From NCBI RefSeq assembly GCF_000010065.1, contig NC_006576.1:2610001-2642000 (forward strand): DNA of 32,000 nucleotides. Reading direction: 5' to 3'. Both the position numbers and the translations under genes were made by a program. Shown here piece by piece: positions 1 to 18,973 of the stretch (position 1 is the stretch's first letter; each line of letters opens with the position of its first letter). This stretch comes from Synechococcus elongatus PCC 6301 (lineage in GTDB: Bacteria; Cyanobacteriota; Cyanobacteriia; Synechococcales; Synechococcaceae). The notes beneath the pieces are model-generated. The model made no database searches, was not told where the DNA came from, and was given only the letters and a program-made list of their open reading frames with translations.

Positions 1-97
1 AAGCAGTCTCAGGGATATCGCCTAACCGAGACTGCTTTGCCGCATCAAGTCACTCAACAAGCTGCGACGCTTGGGGCGATCGCTTGGTGAGTAACCG

Positions 98-364
98 TTA
101 TTCGCCAATCACAGCAAAGCCAGGACGCTTGACCGTGGCACTACCGCCCGACTTCTCGTAGAGCTGGACCGAGGCGATCCCGCTGGTGAGCACTGCCAGC
201 TTCTTCTCAGCCTGGAACTCGCAGTGCAGCTCCAATACGCTTGGCTGGCCGCTGCGCAAGGCCTCAACCACTTGCTGATAGGCCGCCTGTGCAGCTTCTG
301 CTTCTTTGCGCTGCACCGAAACCGGCATGGGCGTGAACTTCAGGGAAATCTCAAGGATGTACAT
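98..364 (-). CDS. Small conserved cyanobacterial protein, UPF0367-like (88 aa)
   Basis: Complete ORF in the track. MYILEISLKFTPMPVSVQRK...VQLYEK...KRPGF resembles the ~85-90 aa cyanobacterial UPF0367 family as I remember it. It is divergent from psbD. The family call is from memory and was not searched. Confidence 0.7.
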   Translation of the reverse strand: MYILEISLKFTPMPVSVQRKEAEAAQAAYQQVVEALRSGQPSVLELHCEFQAEKKLAVLTSGIASVQLYEKSGGSATVKRPGFAVIGE

Positions 365-564
365 GGAAGCCTGCGAGACACAACGGCAGCGATCGCTTCC
401 AGTATCTCAGATCAATATCCCTCCCCGATGGGAGGCAGCCTGCCTATAATGAGACGACAGTAACGAAACGTTAAGCTGCGACCTCGGTTGCCATAATCAT
501 CCATGTTTGTCGCAAACTGCGTTTCTCTGAACTGATATTGCAAATATCTGGAGATTGCTAAGCA

Positions 565-1623
565 ATGACGATTGCAGTAGGGCGAGCGCCAGCGGAGCGG
601 GGATGGTTTGACGTCCTCGACGACTGGCTGAAGCGCGACCGATATGTATTTGTGGGTTGGTCAGGGTTGCTGCTGTTTCCCTGTGCGTATTTAGCACTGG
701 GCGGGTGGTTGACCGGGACCAGCTTTGTGACGTCGTGGTACACCCACGGCATCGCGTCTTCGTACTTAGAAGGCGGCAACTTTTTGACCGTAGCAGTGAG
801 CACCCCAGCGGATGCGTTTGGGCATTCGTTGATGCTGCTGTGGGGCCCCGAGGCACAAGGGAACTTCGTGCGTTGGTGCCAGTTGGGTGGCTTGTGGAAC
901 TTCGTAGCACTGCACGGCGCCTTCGGCCTGATTGGGTTCATGCTGCGTCAATTTGAGATTGCGCGGTTGGTGGGCGTCCGTCCGTACAACGCGATCGCCT
1001 TTTCGGGTCCGATCGCAGTGTTCGTGTCGGTGTTCTTGATGTACCCGTTGGGTCAATCGAGCTGGTTCTTCGCTCCGAGCTTTGGCGTGGCAGCGATTTT
1101 CCGGTTTTTGTTGTTCCTGCAAGGGTTCCACAACTGGACCTTGAACCCATTCCACATGATGGGCGTGGCCGGGATTTTGGGTGGGGCATTGCTGTGCGCC
1201 ATTCACGGTGCGACGGTGGAGAACACCCTGTTCGAGGATTCAGAGCAATCGAACACCTTCCGGGCATTTGAGCCGACGCAGGCCGAAGAGACGTACTCGA
1301 TGGTGACGGCGAACCGTTTTTGGAGCCAGATTTTCGGGATTGCGTTTTCGAACAAGCGGTGGCTGCACTTTTTCATGCTGTTCGTGCCGGTGACGGGCTT
1401 GTGGATGAGCTCGATCGGGATTGTAGGTTTGGCGTTGAACCTGCGGGCGTACGACTTCGTGTCGCAGGAGCTGCGGGCCGCTGAGGATCCGGAATTTGAG
1501 ACGTTCTACACGAAGAACATCTTGTTGAACGAAGGGATTCGGGCCTGGATGGCACCGCAAGACCAACCGCACGAAAAATTCGTCTTCCCCGAAGAGGTTC
1601 TGCCTCGCGGTAACGCTCTCTAG
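565..1623 (+). CDS. psbD: Photosystem II D2 reaction-centre protein; monocistronic copy (psbDII-type, no overlapping psbC downstream)
   Basis: The 352-aa translation is unmistakable D2 ([34 protein letters not shown]...[12 protein letters not shown]). GGAG lies about 10 nt upstream of the ATG. No psbC reading frame overlaps the 3' end, unlike the psbDI-psbC arrangement. Confidence 0.98.
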
Positions 1624-1654
1624 GCATTTTTCTCTAACAGGAAAGATTTTTGCT

Positions 1655-1681
1655 CAACGGCCTCCCCAAAGGAGGTCGTTG
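1655..1681 (+). other. Stem-loop 32 nt after the psbD stop (11 bp including one G-U, 5-nt loop), with no U-tract
   Basis: caacggcctcc-ccaaa-ggaggtcgttg was paired by hand. It is followed by ccgttagg, so it is not a canonical intrinsic terminator. It may be an mRNA-stabilising or processing hairpin. Confidence 0.5.
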
Positions 1682-1899
1682 CCGTTAGGATAGGGGGCGT
1701 AAACCTGTTGTAGTTGCGCGGAGGTGGTGCCCTCATGGTGGAATGTAGTAAAACCTTGGGTCTGATCGTTGGAGAAAGCCGGCTGTGAGCCGGAACCGTC
1801 CTCTGAGCACGATTCCCAGTAATCTTTAAGGTCTGGAACCAGACTTTAGTCGGAGAGTTCTTCCGGCAGCCAGGTTCCGACGTCATAGACCCGACTAGA

Positions 1900-1937
1900 C
1901 CGCTCCTTGTCATCTGATAGGGAGCGGATAGTTTTTT
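1900..1937 (+). terminator. Rho-independent terminator about 310 nt downstream of psbD
   Basis: The 7-bp stem is ccgctcc (1900-1906) / ggagcgg (1921-1927) with a 14-nt loop. It is followed by ata-gTTTTTT (1931-1937). Confidence 0.75.
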
Positions 1938-2035
1938 GAGCAATTATCAACTCATCAATTCCGTAGCAAAAAGCACGAGATTACTCGTCTCAAGTCGCTA
2001 CTTTTAAATGCACCTCGTGTTGACTTCAGATCTGT

Positions 2036-2443
2036 ATGCCAAGACTTCGTTGGACTTCGTACCTCAAAGTGTTGGTGATTAGCCTGATTGCGGGCACCCT
2101 GTCCCCAGTCGTGGCGAGCTTACCTTCGCAAGGGACTCGTCCATCGTTGGCTCGAAGCATGGAGATGAACTCAGTGTTGAGTGCAGCCGAGATTCAGACT
2201 CGCCTATTGCGATTACCGGCTTGGCGTCTAGACGGACAAAGTATCGTCTGCGATCCCCGTTTCGCGGGGTTTCCAGAGGCGATCGCCTTCTTAAATCGCT
2301 TGGTGGAGCCAGCGGAAGCTGCAGGGCACCATCCGGATTTAGAAGTCTCCTACAACCGAGTCATCATCCGTCTAACTACGCACGATGCCGGAGGTTTGAC
2401 CGACCAAGATTTTTCCTTGGCTGAAAAGATCAGCCAACTGTGA
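2036..2443 (+). CDS. Pterin-4a-carbinolamine dehydratase (PCD/DCoH) family protein; start uncertain (2036, 2159 or 2165)
   Basis: The C-terminal ~92 aa (MNSVLSAAEIQTRLLRLPAWRLDG...AAGHHPDLEVSYNRVIIRLTTHDAGGLT) carry the PCD signature HHPD...V...L.TH. The 41-43 aa N-terminal extension from the longest ORF looks like a signal peptide. Confidence 0.8.
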   Translation: MPRLRWTSYLKVLVISLIAGTLSPVVASLPSQGTRPSLARSMEMNSVLSAAEIQTRLLRLPAWRLDGQSIVCDPRFAGFPEAIAFLNRLVEPAEAAGHHPDLEVSYNRVIIRLTTHDAGGLTDQDFSLAEKISQL

Positions 2444-2480
2444 GCAGGGTCAATTCGTGAACTAGCACGGCATCGCCCCC

Positions 2481-2509
2481 TTCCCATGGTTGACTAGGCG
2501 ACATATAAT
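2481..2509 (+). promoter_or_regulatory. Candidate sigma70-type promoter of the first porin gene
   Basis: A perfect TATAAT lies at 2504-2509, with TTCCCA 17 nt upstream (2481-2486). This would give a ~65-nt leader to the ATG at 2581. It is a sequence-only prediction. Confidence 0.4.
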
Positions 2510-2580
2510 GAACCGTGAAGTTCTGCGGCTACCTTGTAAGTAATCCCAAACTTCTAACTCCCGGTGTGAGGATTGAGTTC

Positions 2581-4224
2581 ATGAAAAATCTGTTCAAGGT
2601 CATGTTGGCTGGCCCTCTGGCCGCTAGCGTTGCTTTTGCAGGCGCAGCCCAAGCGGAAAGCCTGAACCGCGACACGATTAATCAGGTCAACGCGATCGCT
2701 AATGAAGAGCTGCCTGCAGCCCAAGTCACTTCGATCACTCAGCTGAGTGATGTCAAACCGACCGACTGGGCTTACCAAGCACTGCAATCGCTGGTTGAGC
2801 GCTATGGCTGTATCGTTGGTTATCCCGATCGTACCTACCGTGGCAGCCGCGCCCTGACTCGCTACGAATTCGCTGCTGGTCTGAACGCTTGTTTGGACAA
2901 AGTCATTGAATTTGCAGCTTCAAAAGAGGATCTCGACACCCTCAAGAAGCTGATGGAAGAGTTCCAAGCTGAACTCGCAACCCTGCGCGGCCGGGTCGAC
3001 AGCCTCGAAGCTCGTGTGACCGAACTGGAAGCAACTCAGTTTTCCACCACCACCAAGCTACAAGGCGAAGTAATCCTGAGCTTGGATCGGGCTTTTGGCC
3101 CCAGCGGTCTCGACACCGGTACCTCCTTCTCGCAACGGGTTAGTCTCAACCTCAATACCAGTTTCACTGGTAAAGATTTGCTGAAAACGCGTCTGCGTTC
3201 CAACAGCATCACCTCTCCTGGCCTACGGGACTTCAATGGTGGCGTGCCTGGCTCAGGCATCATCAGCCCTGCTGCTGCCCTCGATTACGACAACGCCACC
3301 AACGCACCTAACGCTAATTTCTTCCTAGACACGTTGCTCTACACCTTCCCCGTGGGCGATGTGAAATTTACTGTGGGTACTTCTAACCTGCAGGTTGAAG
3401 ACATTCTGTCGACGACTGGCACGTTCTACGCACCCTACATCAGCTACTTCTTCAGTACTCCGATCCCGGGTATCTATGGTGATGCTGATACCACCAACTC
3501 TGCTGGTGCTGGTTTCAACTGGCAACTAAGCAAAAGCTTTAACTTTGGTGCTGCCTACATCAACCAAAATGGTCCGACCACAGGTGGTAACCTCGCCAGT
3601 GACCCGACTTCGGGTGTGTTCGGTGCTGACTCTCAAACTACGGCTCAGTTAGCGTTCAAAAACGACAGTGGTACTTTCATCGGTGCCCTGGCCTACGCTT
3701 ACCGGAAAGGTCCTGACCTTGCAACCGATTTGAGCTTCTTGCCTAGCCAGTTTGGTGGTGTTAACTTCGGTACTCCTCGTGCTTTGGCTGGTCTTGGCTT
3801 AGGTAGCTCCGGCTCAGACATCGTCAGCACCAACAATATTGGTTTGTCCTTGGGCTGGGCAGTGAGCGATGGCTTCACCATCAGCGGTTCCTATGGCATC
3901 AGCTTCGGCAACGGTTTTGGTGCTAACAACACAGTTCAGTCTTGGACGGTAGGCTTCACCTTCCCGAACCTCTTCGCTGATGGCAACGAGTTCGGCTTCG
4001 CAGTGGGTCAAGCACCCTACGTGATCAGTGATAGCCGGGGCGCTGCTTTCCAAGACACCGGTAACTTCGCTTTTGAGGTTTACTACAAGCTGCAAGTGAC
4101 TGACAACATCTCGATCACTCCTGCTCTCTACGCCATCACCAATGCTGGCGGTGGTCTGAGCTTCCCCGATTCGGCTAATGGTGACTTCATCGTCCCCGTG
4201 ATCAAAACCGTGTTTACTTTCTAA
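2581..4224 (+). CDS. Outer-membrane porin with N-terminal SLH domain, coiled coil and OprB-like beta-barrel (SomA/SomB type), 547 aa
   Basis: I chose the ATG at 2581, preceded by GTGAGGA, because it gives a signal peptide MKNLFKVMLAGPLAASVAFAGAAQA. The SLH motif is TDWAYQALQSLVERYGCIVGYPDRTYRG. A heptad-like stretch is followed by a Gly/Asn/Thr-rich alternating barrel that ends in the aromatic residue F (KTVFTF). Confidence 0.9.
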   Translation: MKNLFKVMLAGPLAASVAFAGAAQAESLNRDTINQVNAIANEELPAAQVTSITQLSDVKPTDWAYQALQSLVERYGCIVGYPDRTYRGSRALTRYEFAAGLNACLDKVIEFAASKEDLDTLKKLMEEFQAELATLRGRVDSLEARVTELEATQFSTTTKLQGEVILSLDRAFGPSGLDTGTSFSQRVSLNLNTSFTGKDLLKTRLRSNSITSPGLRDFNGGVPGSGIISPAAALDYDNATNAPNANFFLDTLLYTFPVGDVKFTVGTSNLQVEDILSTTGTFYAPYISYFFSTPIPGIYGDADTTNSAGAGFNWQLSKSFNFGAAYINQNGPTTGGNLASDPTSGVFGADSQTTAQLAFKNDSGTFIGALAYAYRKGPDLATDLSFLPSQFGGVNFGTPRALAGLGLGSSGSDIVSTNNIGLSLGWAVSDGFTISGSYGISFGNGFGANNTVQSWTVGFTFPNLFADGNEFGFAVGQAPYVISDSRGAAFQDTGNFAFEVYYKLQVTDNISITPALYAITNAGGGLSFPDSANGDFIVPVIKTVFTF

Positions 4225-4253
4225 AGCTACGGCACTAGTTAGTTAATCCTTGG

Positions 4254-4292
4254 GAGAGGGTGGGGTCCGCAAGATCTCACCCTCTCTGTTTT
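4254..4292 (+). terminator. Rho-independent terminator after the first porin gene
   Basis: The 9-bp stem is gagagggtg (4254-4262) / caccctctc (4278-4286), followed by tgTTTT (4287-4292). Confidence 0.7.
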
Positions 4293-4460
4293 GAGGGAAA
4301 GCTGGGTTTTGGGTGACCTCCTTGAGAGAAGTGTTGCAAGTTTTGCAAAACGTTCATGCAGGATGTGTTCCAAAAGACTAGTTTTTTGACAAGGGATTTG
4401 TTACCTTACCTTCGTGAGAAGTGATCTAGCCATTTCTCCCTACATGGTGTGAGGTTATCA

Positions 4461-6056
4461 ATGAAACGCCTTTTCTCGGCGCTGCTTCTAGCCCCGGCAA
4501 TTGCTGGTGTGGCTGCGGGCGCAGCAAATGCTAACGGTTTAAGCACCGAACAGCTCCAAAAAATTGACGCTGTAACTCCCAACGGCATCACCTCCGGTCA
4601 GATCACTTCGATCACCGAATTGAGTGATGTCAAGCCGACTGACTGGGCTTATCAAGCATTGCAGTCGCTAGTTGAGCGTTATGGCTGCATCGTCGGCTAC
4701 CCTGATCGGACTTACCGTGGTAGCCGCCCCCTCCCTCGTTATGAGTTTGCAGCAGGCTTGAACGCTTGCTTGGACAAAGTCATTGAATTTGCAGCGTCGA
4801 AAGAGGATCTCGACACCCTCAAGCGACTGACTGAAGAATTCCAAGCTGAGCTGGCGACCCTGCGTGGTCGTGTTGATAGTCTCGAGGCTCATGTTAAAGA
4901 GCTCGAAGCTACCCGTTTCTCCACCACGACTAAGCTACAAGGTGAAGTAATCTTCAGCTTGGACGCTGTTGCTAATACTGCTGGCAACGAACGTAACCAA
5001 GACGGTGCTGTATCGTTCGGCAACCGCGTCAGCTTGAACCTCAACACGAGCTTCACTGGCAAAGACTTGCTATTGACCCGTCTGCGCGCTCGTAACATTG
5101 AGACGATTCAGCAGCGCTTGTCGCCTGGCTTTAATCCCTCGGGCTCGCGGCTCGACTACGACGGTACCGGTTCGCCTGGTGTCCCGAATTCGGCTAATAC
5201 CTTTTTCCTTGACAAATTGCTGTACCGCTTCCCCGTCGGTGATGTCTCCTTCACTGTTGGTACCGCGGGCGTTCAACCTCAAGACTACGGCCTGAGCGAC
5301 GCTACCTTCTTCAGTGGCCCTGCGAACACGAAAGCCTTCAAGTATGTCGGTGCAGGTGTTTACGCTGATACTCGTGATGCTGATACCGCTGGTGTTGGCT
5401 TCAACTGGAAGGCTAGTAAGAATTTCAGCTTCCAGGCTGGCTACATCAACCGCAACTCTGCTGATGTCTCGACTGTCAACAGTGGTGGTGTCTTTGGCTT
5501 CACCCCGACAGGGACTGGTACTAACTCTTGGGATGTGAACGCTCAAGTCAAGTACCAAACTGATAACAACAAGTTCCGAGTTGCTCTGGCCTACGCTCTG
5601 CGAAATGGTCGCTACGCCACTGACTTCGGTACCACCAACGCCTTCCAGCCTTTTGGTGCTACCAACTACAACAGCAACAACCTTGCTCTCTCCTTGGGTT
5701 GGGCAATTTCTGATGCTGTGACCTTGTCAGCCGGCTACGGCATTGGCTTTGTCAATGAGCAAGGTACGAACCAAAACGCGACTGTTCAGAACTACGCAAT
5801 TGGCTTGACCTTCCCTAACCTGTTTGCTGATGGCAACGAGTTTGGTGTTGCAGCAGACCAACAACCTTGGGTCAGCAGCGCTTCTAACCGTTCGTCTGAA
5901 GACACTGGTTCCTTTGGTGTTGAAACCTACTACAAAATCCAAGTGACGGACAATATCTCCATCACTCCTGGTACTTACGTGTTCAACAACACCAATGGCC
6001 AGCAAAACGGTGGAACGACTTACGTTCCCTTCCTGAAAACAGTCTTCCGTTTCTAG
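4461..6056 (+). CDS. Second SLH-domain / OprB-like porin paralog (SomA/SomB type), 531 aa
   Basis: The ATG at 4461 is preceded by GGTGTGAGGTT, the same leader motif as the first porin. The signal peptide is MKRLFSALLLAPAIAGVAAGAANA. The SLH and coiled-coil block is ~92% identical in protein to the upstream paralog. The C-terminus is KTVFRF. Confidence 0.9.
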   Translation: MKRLFSALLLAPAIAGVAAGAANANGLSTEQLQKIDAVTPNGITSGQITSITELSDVKPTDWAYQALQSLVERYGCIVGYPDRTYRGSRPLPRYEFAAGLNACLDKVIEFAASKEDLDTLKRLTEEFQAELATLRGRVDSLEAHVKELEATRFSTTTKLQGEVIFSLDAVANTAGNERNQDGAVSFGNRVSLNLNTSFTGKDLLLTRLRARNIETIQQRLSPGFNPSGSRLDYDGTGSPGVPNSANTFFLDKLLYRFPVGDVSFTVGTAGVQPQDYGLSDATFFSGPANTKAFKYVGAGVYADTRDADTAGVGFNWKASKNFSFQAGYINRNSADVSTVNSGGVFGFTPTGTGTNSWDVNAQVKYQTDNNKFRVALAYALRNGRYATDFGTTNAFQPFGATNYNSNNLALSLGWAISDAVTLSAGYGIGFVNEQGTNQNATVQNYAIGLTFPNLFADGNEFGVAADQQPWVSSASNRSSEDTGSFGVETYYKIQVTDNISITPGTYVFNNTNGQQNGGTTYVPFLKTVFRF

Positions 6057-13056: not shown

Positions 13057-14178
13057 TTAGCCGCCAATGGTTTGGGCAAGGCCAAGGAACAGCGGAATGG
13101 CAATCCCGATTGCCACAGGAGTTCCGATCGCGGTGGAAGCCCCGATGTAGGCAGAGGGGTTGGCAGAAGGAATGCCAGCGCGCAGCGTCGGGGGACCGGA
13201 AATGTCGGAACTAGAGGCAGCGATGACTGCCAGAACCACAACGCCGCCCATGCTAAAACCAGTTGCGTAGTGCGCAATCATGCCAAGGCCGAAGGCAATG
13301 AACCCATGGGCTAGCGGCGCCACGATACTGTAGACGACGTACCACTGAGCTACTTTACGCAGCTCACTAATTCTCGACCATGCTTCCATGCCCATGACCA
13401 GCATCAGGATGGAAAGCAGCCCCCGGAAGAGAGGATCGTAGAAACCTTCGTAGACACTTTCTGGACGGGCAAACAGACCCAGAGCAACGCCAAGCAACAT
13501 TGCTGATAGGGCTGGACCTTGCAGGCTTTCTTCTACAATCGGCCAGATTTTGACCCGATGATCCCCAGACTCTTGCTGAGCATATTCGCGCCGGCTGCTG
13601 GGATAGTCCGACGAGCTGGAATAGTCGCCAGCGGCAACGGGCTGCTTGCTGTAAGCCCCCTGGGCTGACGCGAAAGCTGCTTCTTTCCGCTTCTTCTTAT
13701 TGAGATAGATGTTGGCGACGACGATCGCAGTCACCAAGGCCGGAATATCCATGAAGGGATAAAGCGCACCGGCCCAAGCTTCGTAGGGAATTTTTTGCTC
13801 TTCAAGGAGGGTTAGAGCTGCGGCCATCGTCGAGCCACTCACAGCACCAAAGAGCCCTCCCGTTGCGATCGCATCCACTGTTTTAACCTTTGGCATTCTC
13901 GCCAAGGTGTAGCGGGCGATGAAGACGATCAGAATGCCAATCGCTACTGAAAAGAGCGCGGGTAGGACCATCTCCGTCAAATTCGAGTTGCGGATCGCCA
14001 TACCGCCGGTCAGACCAATCTTGGTCAGCAGCATGAAAACGATGATCTTACAAATCGACTCTGGGATTTGCAGCTGACTACCACAGGCAGCAATAACCAT
14101 GCCGCCAATCAGAAAGCTGAGTGTTGGAGACTGCAGCTGCTTAACGAAGTCCATTAAGAAATTGGACAAGAAATCCAC
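13057..14178 (-). CDS. sbtA: Sodium-dependent bicarbonate transporter SbtA (373 aa, GTG start)
   Basis: From GTG 14178 the protein reads (M)DFLSNFLMDFVKQLQSPTLSFLIGGMVIAACGSQL. This aligns with the Synechocystis SbtA N-terminus as I recall it. A strong AGGAGGAG lies 5-6 nt upstream. Two 5-TM repeats flank a charged central loop (NKKKRKEAAF...). Confidence 0.93.
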   Translation of the reverse strand: MDFLSNFLMDFVKQLQSPTLSFLIGGMVIAACGSQLQIPESICKIIVFMLLTKIGLTGGMAIRNSNLTEMVLPALFSVAIGILIVFIARYTLARMPKVKTVDAIATGGLFGAVSGSTMAAALTLLEEQKIPYEAWAGALYPFMDIPALVTAIVVANIYLNKKKRKEAAFASAQGAYSKQPVAAGDYSSSSDYPSSRREYAQQESGDHRVKIWPIVEESLQGPALSAMLLGVALGLFARPESVYEGFYDPLFRGLLSILMLVMGMEAWSRISELRKVAQWYVVYSIVAPLAHGFIAFGLGMIAHYATGFSMGGVVVLAVIAASSSDISGPPTLRAGIPSANPSAYIGASTAIGTPVAIGIAIPLFLGLAQTIGG

Positions 14179-17638: not shown

Positions 17639-18076
17639 CTACAGGGTTTCAAGGTAGCGCAAGAGGTCGGCCATGGTTTCTGGACTGGGCTGAAACTTAG
17701 GCATGGGAGGCGTTTCGCCAGTCGTTACCTGCCGGATCAAATCTTTGCGGGACTTGCGATTGGAGACATTAGCCAGGTCCGGTCCAACCAAACCCCGTCC
17801 TTCAGGCCCATGGCAGCCGGCACAGTTGATTTGAAAGATTGCCTGGCCGCGCTCAGCATTGCCCGGCAGGTTTAGCACCGTGCTGACGTAGGGATCGGCA
17901 GGACGAATAAGCGTGACCACTAGGCCGATCGCAACCATGACAGCAGTTGCCAGGAGCCAGCCCAAGGTCTGAGCGGCGCGAGATTCAATCGATTTGGAAA
18001 GAGATTGTTCCACAGCGCTCGCGATCGCGGGACTGAGACTGTCAGTCGTTTGCAGGACGTGTCTCAGAAGGATCAT
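17639..18076 (-). CDS. cytM: Membrane-anchored c-type cytochrome, CytM-like (145 aa)
   Basis: It has a single heme motif CAGCH, an N-terminal TM helix (LGWLLATAVMVAIGLVVTLI) and a Met-ligand region TGETPPMPKF. The layout and the sequence PYVSTVLNLPGNAERGQAIFQINCAGCHG resemble cytochrome cM. Confidence 0.7.
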   Translation of the reverse strand: MILLRHVLQTTDSLSPAIASAVEQSLSKSIESRAAQTLGWLLATAVMVAIGLVVTLIRPADPYVSTVLNLPGNAERGQAIFQINCAGCHGPEGRGLVGPDLANVSNRKSRKDLIRQVTTGETPPMPKFQPSPETMADLLRYLETL

Positions 18077-18193
18077 ACACCTTTACAATTAGAGGGGTAG
18101 CAGCAGCAATCGCCCCTTGCCTTGGGCTTTTCGGGGAGCTAGCTCAATCGCTACACTGCTTAAGCACCCTGTATTTCCAAGAGGCAGCCAATC

Positions 18194-18308
18194 ATGATCG
18201 AGCCCTTGCTCTGCGGTATCGTTCTTGGGCCTAATCCCGATTACCTCGGCGGGCTTGTTTATGGCAGCCTACCTGCAATATCGTCGCGGCAACCAACTCG
18301 GCGCCTAA
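18194..18308 (+). pseudogene. petG: Cytochrome b6f subunit PetG, with the reading frame interrupted by one extra nucleotide (115 nt from ATG to stop)
   Basis: Frame 1 (18194-18229) gives [12 protein letters not shown]. The +1 frame (18231-18308) gives [25 protein letters not shown] followed by a stop. Joined together they make a canonical 37-aa PetG (compare plant [35 protein letters not shown]). The extra base is one C of GGGCC at 18230/18231. Confidence 0.75.
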
Positions 18309-18337
18309 TCAGCCGCAGTTGTTGCTCTCAATCACTC

Positions 18338-18377
18338 AACCGCAGTCAGCCGATTGGTTTGCTGCGGTTCTGTTTTT
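18338..18377 (+). terminator. Rho-independent terminator after petG
   Basis: The 8-bp stem is aaccgcag (18338-18345) / ctgcggtt (18362-18369), followed by ctgTTTTT (18370-18377). Confidence 0.7.
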
Positions 18378-18418
18378 CTAGACCATTGACAATCGGCCTG
18401 ATTGACCGATGGAAAGTT

Positions 18419-18973
18419 TTAGTCCTTCTGGGGAACAGCCCAAGTGATCAGGCTGACTGCCGTACTGCCGTAGCGACGGCATTGCTTGAGTTCAAAATTG
18501 GGAGGAAGGGCGATCGCCCGATCGGGACGATGCTCAACAGCAATCTCTCCCTGCTCGTGCAAGAGCGATCGCTCCGCTAAGAGAGCCAGGACGGGTTCGT
18601 ACAGATCACCGTCGTAGGGCGGGTCGAAGTAAATCAAGTCAAAGGCTGGGGCATCCAGACTAGCCAGCAGGCGACAGATCTCCCCTTTTAACAGCCGTAC
18701 TTCTTGATCAGGCGCCTGTAATTTCTGCCAGTTCTGGGCGATCGCCCGACAGGCCTGGGCAGACTGCTCAATGCCCCACACCACGCTGGCCCCTCGGAGG
18801 AGTGCCTCGCCACCCATAGCGCCGCTGCCGGCACAGAGATCGAGCCAACGGCAGTCAGGAACTGCAAATTGCCAGACGTTGAAGATAGCGTTGCGTACCC
18901 GGGAAGGGGTCGGTCGGGTTCCCAAACCTGCAGGGGTTTGCAGCGATCGCCGGCCCGAAAGACGGATGCTCAT
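18419..18973 (-). CDS. rsmD: 16S rRNA (guanine966-N2)-methyltransferase RsmD (184 aa)
   Basis: TRPTPSRVRNAIFNVW, the SAM-binding LDLCAGSGAMGGEALLRGA and the catalytic FDPPYD are all present. It has a 4-nt overlap with hisH. Confidence 0.85.
   Translation of the reverse strand: MSIRLSGRRSLQTPAGLGTRPTPSRVRNAIFNVWQFAVPDCRWLDLCAGSGAMGGEALLRGASVVWGIEQSAQACRAIAQNWQKLQAPDQEVRLLKGEICRLLASLDAPAFDLIYFDPPYDGDLYEPVLALLAERSLLHEQGEIAVEHRPDRAIALPPNFELKQCRRYGSTAVSLITWAVPQKD

Follow-up and report, generated by a model that had tools for sequence, protein, structure and literature searches.

The sequence of Synechococcus elongatus PCC 6301 deposited in the Sanger era is known to contain many errors. Adomako et al. 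2022 (mBio, PMC9239245) resequenced the strain and report more than 1,000 spurious SNPs and indels in the old sequence. Many of these were frameshift or nonsense changes in genes that are essential in PCC 7942; none of the essential-gene changes was real in resequenced PCC 6301, and the majority of the differences are ascribed in the same text to 'unfortunate sequencing errors'. Published estimates of the number of spurious differences in this record range from 1,000 to 1,600 per 2.7 Mb (PMC9239245; PMC5389031). The petG gene of PCC 7942 (Synpcc7942_1479) is scored as 'essential' (PMC5464585, supplementary file 9), and in Synechocystis, too, the protein is essential (Schneider et al. 2007, as cited in PMC5126843).

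We analysed a stretch of 32,000 nucleotides of the old PCC 6301 record, below called the window. Its petG gene is interrupted by a frameshift. No other record shares the frameshift: petG is in frame in every other assembly compared.

The petG locus as written

The petG gene starts with the ATG codon at 18194-18196 on the plus strand. Translation in frame 0 yields 12 PetG residues (codons 1-12, 18194..18229), corresponding to positions 1-12 of the Pfam PetG profile, then continues with the unrelated sequence PNPDYLGG... and terminates at the stop codon 18578-18580. Codons 13-37 and the stop codon of petG are found in the +1 frame at 18231..18308. The stop codon is at 18306-18308, so that the distance from the ATG through the stop is 115 nt. 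The 128-aa open reading frame 18194..18580 (plus strand) is a spurious read-through product made by the extra base; it extends antisense into rsmD, and beyond residues 1-12 it has no match to any Pfam family. The initial annotation had described this division of petG between two frames, the 115-nt distance and the 128-codon ORF antisense to rsmD. All three observations were reproduced by translation, and the division was further confirmed by the Pfam match of the joined reading.

The PetG family profile (PF02529) has 36 positions and a gathering cut-off of 23.7 bits. Only the joined 37-aa reading matches it from end to end (83.1 bits, positions 1-36 of 36). The 128-aa ORF as written scores 21.6 bits, under the cut-off, with a match to positions 1-12 only, and the ORF starting with TTG in the +1 frame (18225-18308) scores 52.4 bits, with a match to positions 11-36. 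The joined reading is thus a full-length member of the family, and the DNA as written has an ORF of 128 aa in place of the single uninterrupted ORF of approximately 37 codons. The genomic position is the one occupied by petG in conspecific genomes: the gene lies between cytM and rsmD, as it does in loci L063-L066, each with a called gene for a 37-aa protein of PF02529. It had been proposed that dropping one base restores a 37-aa PetG. This holds for the length of the protein and for its profile match, but the restored protein retains an aberrant serine at residue 18. Exact look-up in a collection of 15 billion proteins retrieved neither the 128-aa ORF, nor the 27-aa ORF of the +1 frame, nor the 'restored' PetG with Ser18, with the reservation that the gene calls of the PCC 6301 record itself may differ from these three. 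The absence of these proteins fits the status of an artefact.

The signals flanking the gene are intact. The Shine-Dalgarno-like motif AAGAGG (18179..18184, plus strand) is situated 9 nt 5' of the ATG and is the same in all five aligned assemblies; judging by its sequence and position, it may act as the ribosome-binding site of petG. Downstream of the gene there is a hairpin (18338-18369) with a stem of 9+4 bp, immediately followed by the U-rich tail CUGUUUUUCU at 18370-18379. The minimum free energy of a 77-nt stretch with this hairpin is -23.2 kcal/mol (z = -2.8), and the entire structure (18338..18379, plus strand) is the same in all assemblies aligned. The hairpin and the tail are a probable intrinsic terminator separating the convergent genes petG and rsmD. 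This agrees with the initial annotation, which had noted a good intrinsic terminator at 18338-18377. A simple consensus scan for terminators made no call on this hairpin; given the folding results, this is explained by the loop and bulge rules of the scan and not by the lack of a hairpin.

The divergent upstream neighbour (17639..18076, minus strand) is cytM, encoding a c-type cytochrome with matches to the Pfam families Cytochrome_CBB3 and Cytochrom_C and 100% identical to BAD80654.1 of PCC 6301. The convergent downstream neighbour (18419..18973, minus strand) is rsmD, encoding a 16S rRNA methyltransferase (Pfam Cons_hypoth95) whose protein sequence is identical across strains.

Comparison with other assemblies and species

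Four independent S. elongatus assemblies, retrieved by means of proteins that the window encodes, were aligned to the window locus: two Logan assemblies of read sets (SRR32807033 and SRR12829283), the NCBI draft of a FACHB strain (GCA_014698905.1), and the wild isolate UTEX 3055 (CP033061.1). In both pairwise and multiple alignments the window has CTTGGGCCTA where all four other assemblies have CTTGGCCTA, and the gene for the 37-aa PetG is called in all four. It follows that the surplus base, which causes the frameshift, is a G of the GGG run at 18227..18229 (plus strand; GG in all other assemblies). The initial annotation had assigned it to the C residues of GGGCC; the alignment does not agree with this, although removing either base restores the same protein.

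Over 13 kb, about 1.1% of sites separate UTEX 3055 from the legacy strains, yet there is no difference between them in the petG coding sequence. An intact 37-aa PetG is encoded on 219 contigs, including those of PCC 7942 (ABB57509.1), UTEX 2973 (AJD57857.1) and two FACHB assemblies. UTEX 2973 was recovered from the stock of UTEX 625, which is the same strain as PCC 6301, and its petG is intact. Sister genomes shorter by one base had been named in advance as the sign of a sequence artefact, and this is what is seen in the four assemblies and on the 219 contigs.

At larger evolutionary distances, genome contigs were scanned with a degenerate petG pattern that accepts either allele, and 61 other cyanobacterial species representatives were matched. 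The extra base was observed in none of them: every match is 50 nt long, and there are no matches of 51 nt. The length of the petG ORF in these 61 species varies from 32 to 39 aa and is 37-39 aa in 59 of them. Residue 18 of PetG is leucine in 58 species and isoleucine in the remaining three, and no species has serine.

Private differences around petG and across the window

The extra G is accompanied by other differences that are private to the window record. Two of them are in petG itself. At 18205 (plus strand) there is C for T, a synonymous change in the codon of Pro4 (CCC vs CCT), and at 18247 (plus strand) there is again C for T, replacing Leu18 of PetG by Ser. One more private substitution, at 18070, falls in codon 3 of cytM (minus strand), 124 nt upstream of the petG ATG, and replaces Ile3 by Leu. 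The Leu3 form of CytM is found on one contig only (BAD80654.1, PCC 6301), and the Ile3 form on 202 contigs, including those of PCC 7942 and UTEX 2973. Taken together, four record-private differences (18070, 18205, the extra G at 18227, and 18247) are located within 178 bp. The statement of the initial annotation that the locus is otherwise intact is refuted by the three substitutions.

When the porin genes are set aside, 11 private differences are left in approximately 26 kb of the window, or 0.42 per kb, which equals the published density of 1,000-1,600 per 2.7 Mb. Four of the 11 would come together within 178 bp by chance with a probability of about 4e-4. Besides the petG cluster, private differences were observed at seven sites. 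They are L53P in MbhD (9786; BAD80646.1 of PCC 6301), F293L and T269A in MnhD (11429 and 11501; BAD80649.1 of PCC 6301), Y259H in the DUF2126 protein (16787; BAD80653.1 of PCC 6301), a synonymous change in rsmD (18632), I251V in CmpA (26520; BAD80664.1 of PCC 6301), and a change in the second position of codon 6 of a MazG-like gene (31755). The window forms of MbhD, MnhD, the DUF2126 protein and CmpA are found on one contig each, and the consensus forms on 150-320 contigs. These seven sites probably represent the same class of sequence error.

Among the ten private substitutions, eight are non-synonymous, including L18S in PetG, and two are synonymous; thus there is no sign of purifying selection. 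In eight of the ten, A/T is replaced by G/C, through a transition in seven cases and a transversion in one. Such a direction is the opposite of the usual mutation bias in bacteria and resembles the error spectra of PCR or cloning. The lean towards G/C is only a hint at errors of the PCR or cloning type, as ten sites are too few.

Two other regions of the window differ from other assemblies. At site 13628 in sbtA (13057-14178, minus strand) the window coincides with PCC 7942, UTEX 2973 and UTEX 3055, and the SRR32807033 assembly has G184D in SbtA. The G184D form occurs on 85 Logan contigs, and thus the difference reflects true polymorphism in a laboratory sub-line that has been widely sequenced, and not an error of the window.

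The second region is at the left end of the window. When window positions 1-2811 are compared with L067, another S. elongatus assembly, gene-order homology begins only at 2683, within the ORF of an OprB/SLH porin (2515-4224), and there are 25 differences at 2688-2811, mostly in third codon positions. Upstream of 2683 the window contains a psbA-like gene (565-1623) and a pterin-4a dehydratase gene (2036-2443), and L067 has Peptidase_M75, DHOR and Ycf34 genes instead. A 188.6-kb inversion flanked by porin-like sequences distinguishes PCC 6301 and UTEX 2973 from PCC 7942 (Yu et al. 2015, PMC5389031), and the break in 1-2811 looks like one end of it. Two tandem porin genes (3536-5974) contain eleven more differences from L067, about 4.5 per kb, with mixed directions. 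Possible sources are errors of the record, exchange between the paralogues, and their misassembly from short reads.

Origin of the extra base

With a probability of about 0.93, the petG frameshift is an error of the old (2004/2007) Sanger-era reference of PCC 6301 and not a biological feature. The error seems to have entered at the stage of sequencing or cloning and not to have been present in the sequenced culture. The real petG of PCC 6301 would then be an ordinary intact gene of 37 codons with its own ribosome-binding site and terminator, whose product is PetG, a single-helix subunit of the cytochrome b6f complex. The extra G at 18227-18229 and the three adjoining private substitutions would all be errors of the record. 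The likely cause would be a read of poor local quality or a mutation in the sequencing template, and no biological mechanism would need to be invoked. An assembly or base-calling error was the option listed first in the initial annotation, and the other assemblies, the private cluster and the resequencing paper all speak for it.

It is quite unlikely that the frameshift was a genuine lesion of the PCC 6301 clone or subculture sequenced in 2004, possibly present on only part of the several chromosome copies of this oligoploid cyanobacterium or picked up with one cloned fragment. The extra base does stand in the deposited record, and laboratory lines of S. elongatus do accumulate private mutations, such as RpaA-Q121 in the sequenced clone of PCC 7942 (PMC9239245). 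Moreover, a mutation confined to the 2004 subclone would give the same outcome in all comparisons made here. However, petG is essential in PCC 7942, and UTEX 2973, derived from the same stock, has an intact petG. The three additional private substitutions within 178 bp, and the density of approximately 0.4 private differences per kb throughout the window, none of them recurring in 150-320 other contigs, fit a problem of sequence quality and not a viable lineage. Resequenced PCC 6301 had no such changes in essential genes (PMC9239245). In a very unlikely version, the extra G was real in the 2004 subculture and the resulting null allele of petG either resided on some of the chromosome copies or was rescued by low-level +1 slippage at CUU-GGG-C. 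If this were true, nature would offer an example of an essential gene of photosynthesis kept in a broken state. Incipient pseudogenisation, in which PCC 6301 would be losing petG by decay and its b6f complex would manage without PetG or with a substitute, is scarcely credible. A frameshift and a non-conservative L18S replacement in a gene of 37 codons do resemble decay. On the other hand, PetG is essential both in Synechocystis and in PCC 7942, PCC 6301 grows photoautotrophically, and similar private damage is seen in unrelated neighbouring genes. The published resequencing calls such changes errors. We rejected pseudogenisation as being in conflict with the essentiality of petG and with the resequencing.

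Programmed recoding, that is, a +1 shift of the ribosome at CUU-GGG-C or slippage of RNA polymerase on the G run yielding full-length PetG, is extremely improbable. Both halves of petG are perfectly kept, the ribosome-binding site and the terminator are intact, and a tRNA-Gly paired with GGG could in principle re-pair with GGC. The preservation of both halves, however, is expected anyway if the base is a plain error. None of the other S. elongatus assemblies compared and none of the 61 other species has the extra base, and thus there is no conserved recoding site. Frame 0 remains open for 116 further codons, so that the shift site has no stop codon and no obviously slow codon, and no Shine-Dalgarno-like stimulator was found in the 15 nt upstream of it. 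Transcriptional slippage would need a run much longer than three G. Recoding therefore fails every available test and is effectively refuted by the comparison, in line with the initial annotation, where it was considered the least likely option; the shift site is not conserved and has neither a stop nor a stimulator.

For users of the old PCC 6301 record, an error of this kind means that petG is missing or labelled as a pseudogene. In the 32 kb considered here the old record has at least seven altered proteins: CytM, MbhD, MnhD, the DUF2126 protein, CmpA, the MazG-like protein, and PetG with L18S. At least one large collection of genomes seems to use the old record for this species. The authors of the corrected record, CP085785-7, recommend that it should be used instead (Adomako et al. 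2022, PMC9239245). The value of the present observation is that of housekeeping; it adds nothing new on cytochrome b6f or on recoding.

Compared with +1 frameshifting of the prfB (RF2) type, petG would likewise need a +1 shift after a CUU codon, and CUU is the shift codon of prfB. Unlike the sites of that type, the petG site lacks an in-frame stop and a Shine-Dalgarno stimulator upstream, and it is not conserved in relatives. Compared with petG of PCC 7942 (Synpcc7942_1479, ABB57509.1), the window has the same cytM-rsmD locus, ribosome-binding site and terminator, and there are three differences in the 115-nt gene, namely the extra G, the synonymous C at 18205, and Ser for Leu18. Among the known errors of the PCC 6301 record, petG is not named individually in the main text of Adomako et al. 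2022 (PMC9239245), and thus the link of this site to the resequencing is through the general statement of the paper and the essentiality of petG. The petG frameshift is similar to these errors in three respects: only the old record has it, and no other S. elongatus assembly compared does; the gene that it disrupts is essential in PCC 7942; and the local density of private differences equals the genome-wide figure reported for the record. We infer that it belongs to the documented class of PCC 6301 errors, and it is almost certainly an artefact of this already published kind.
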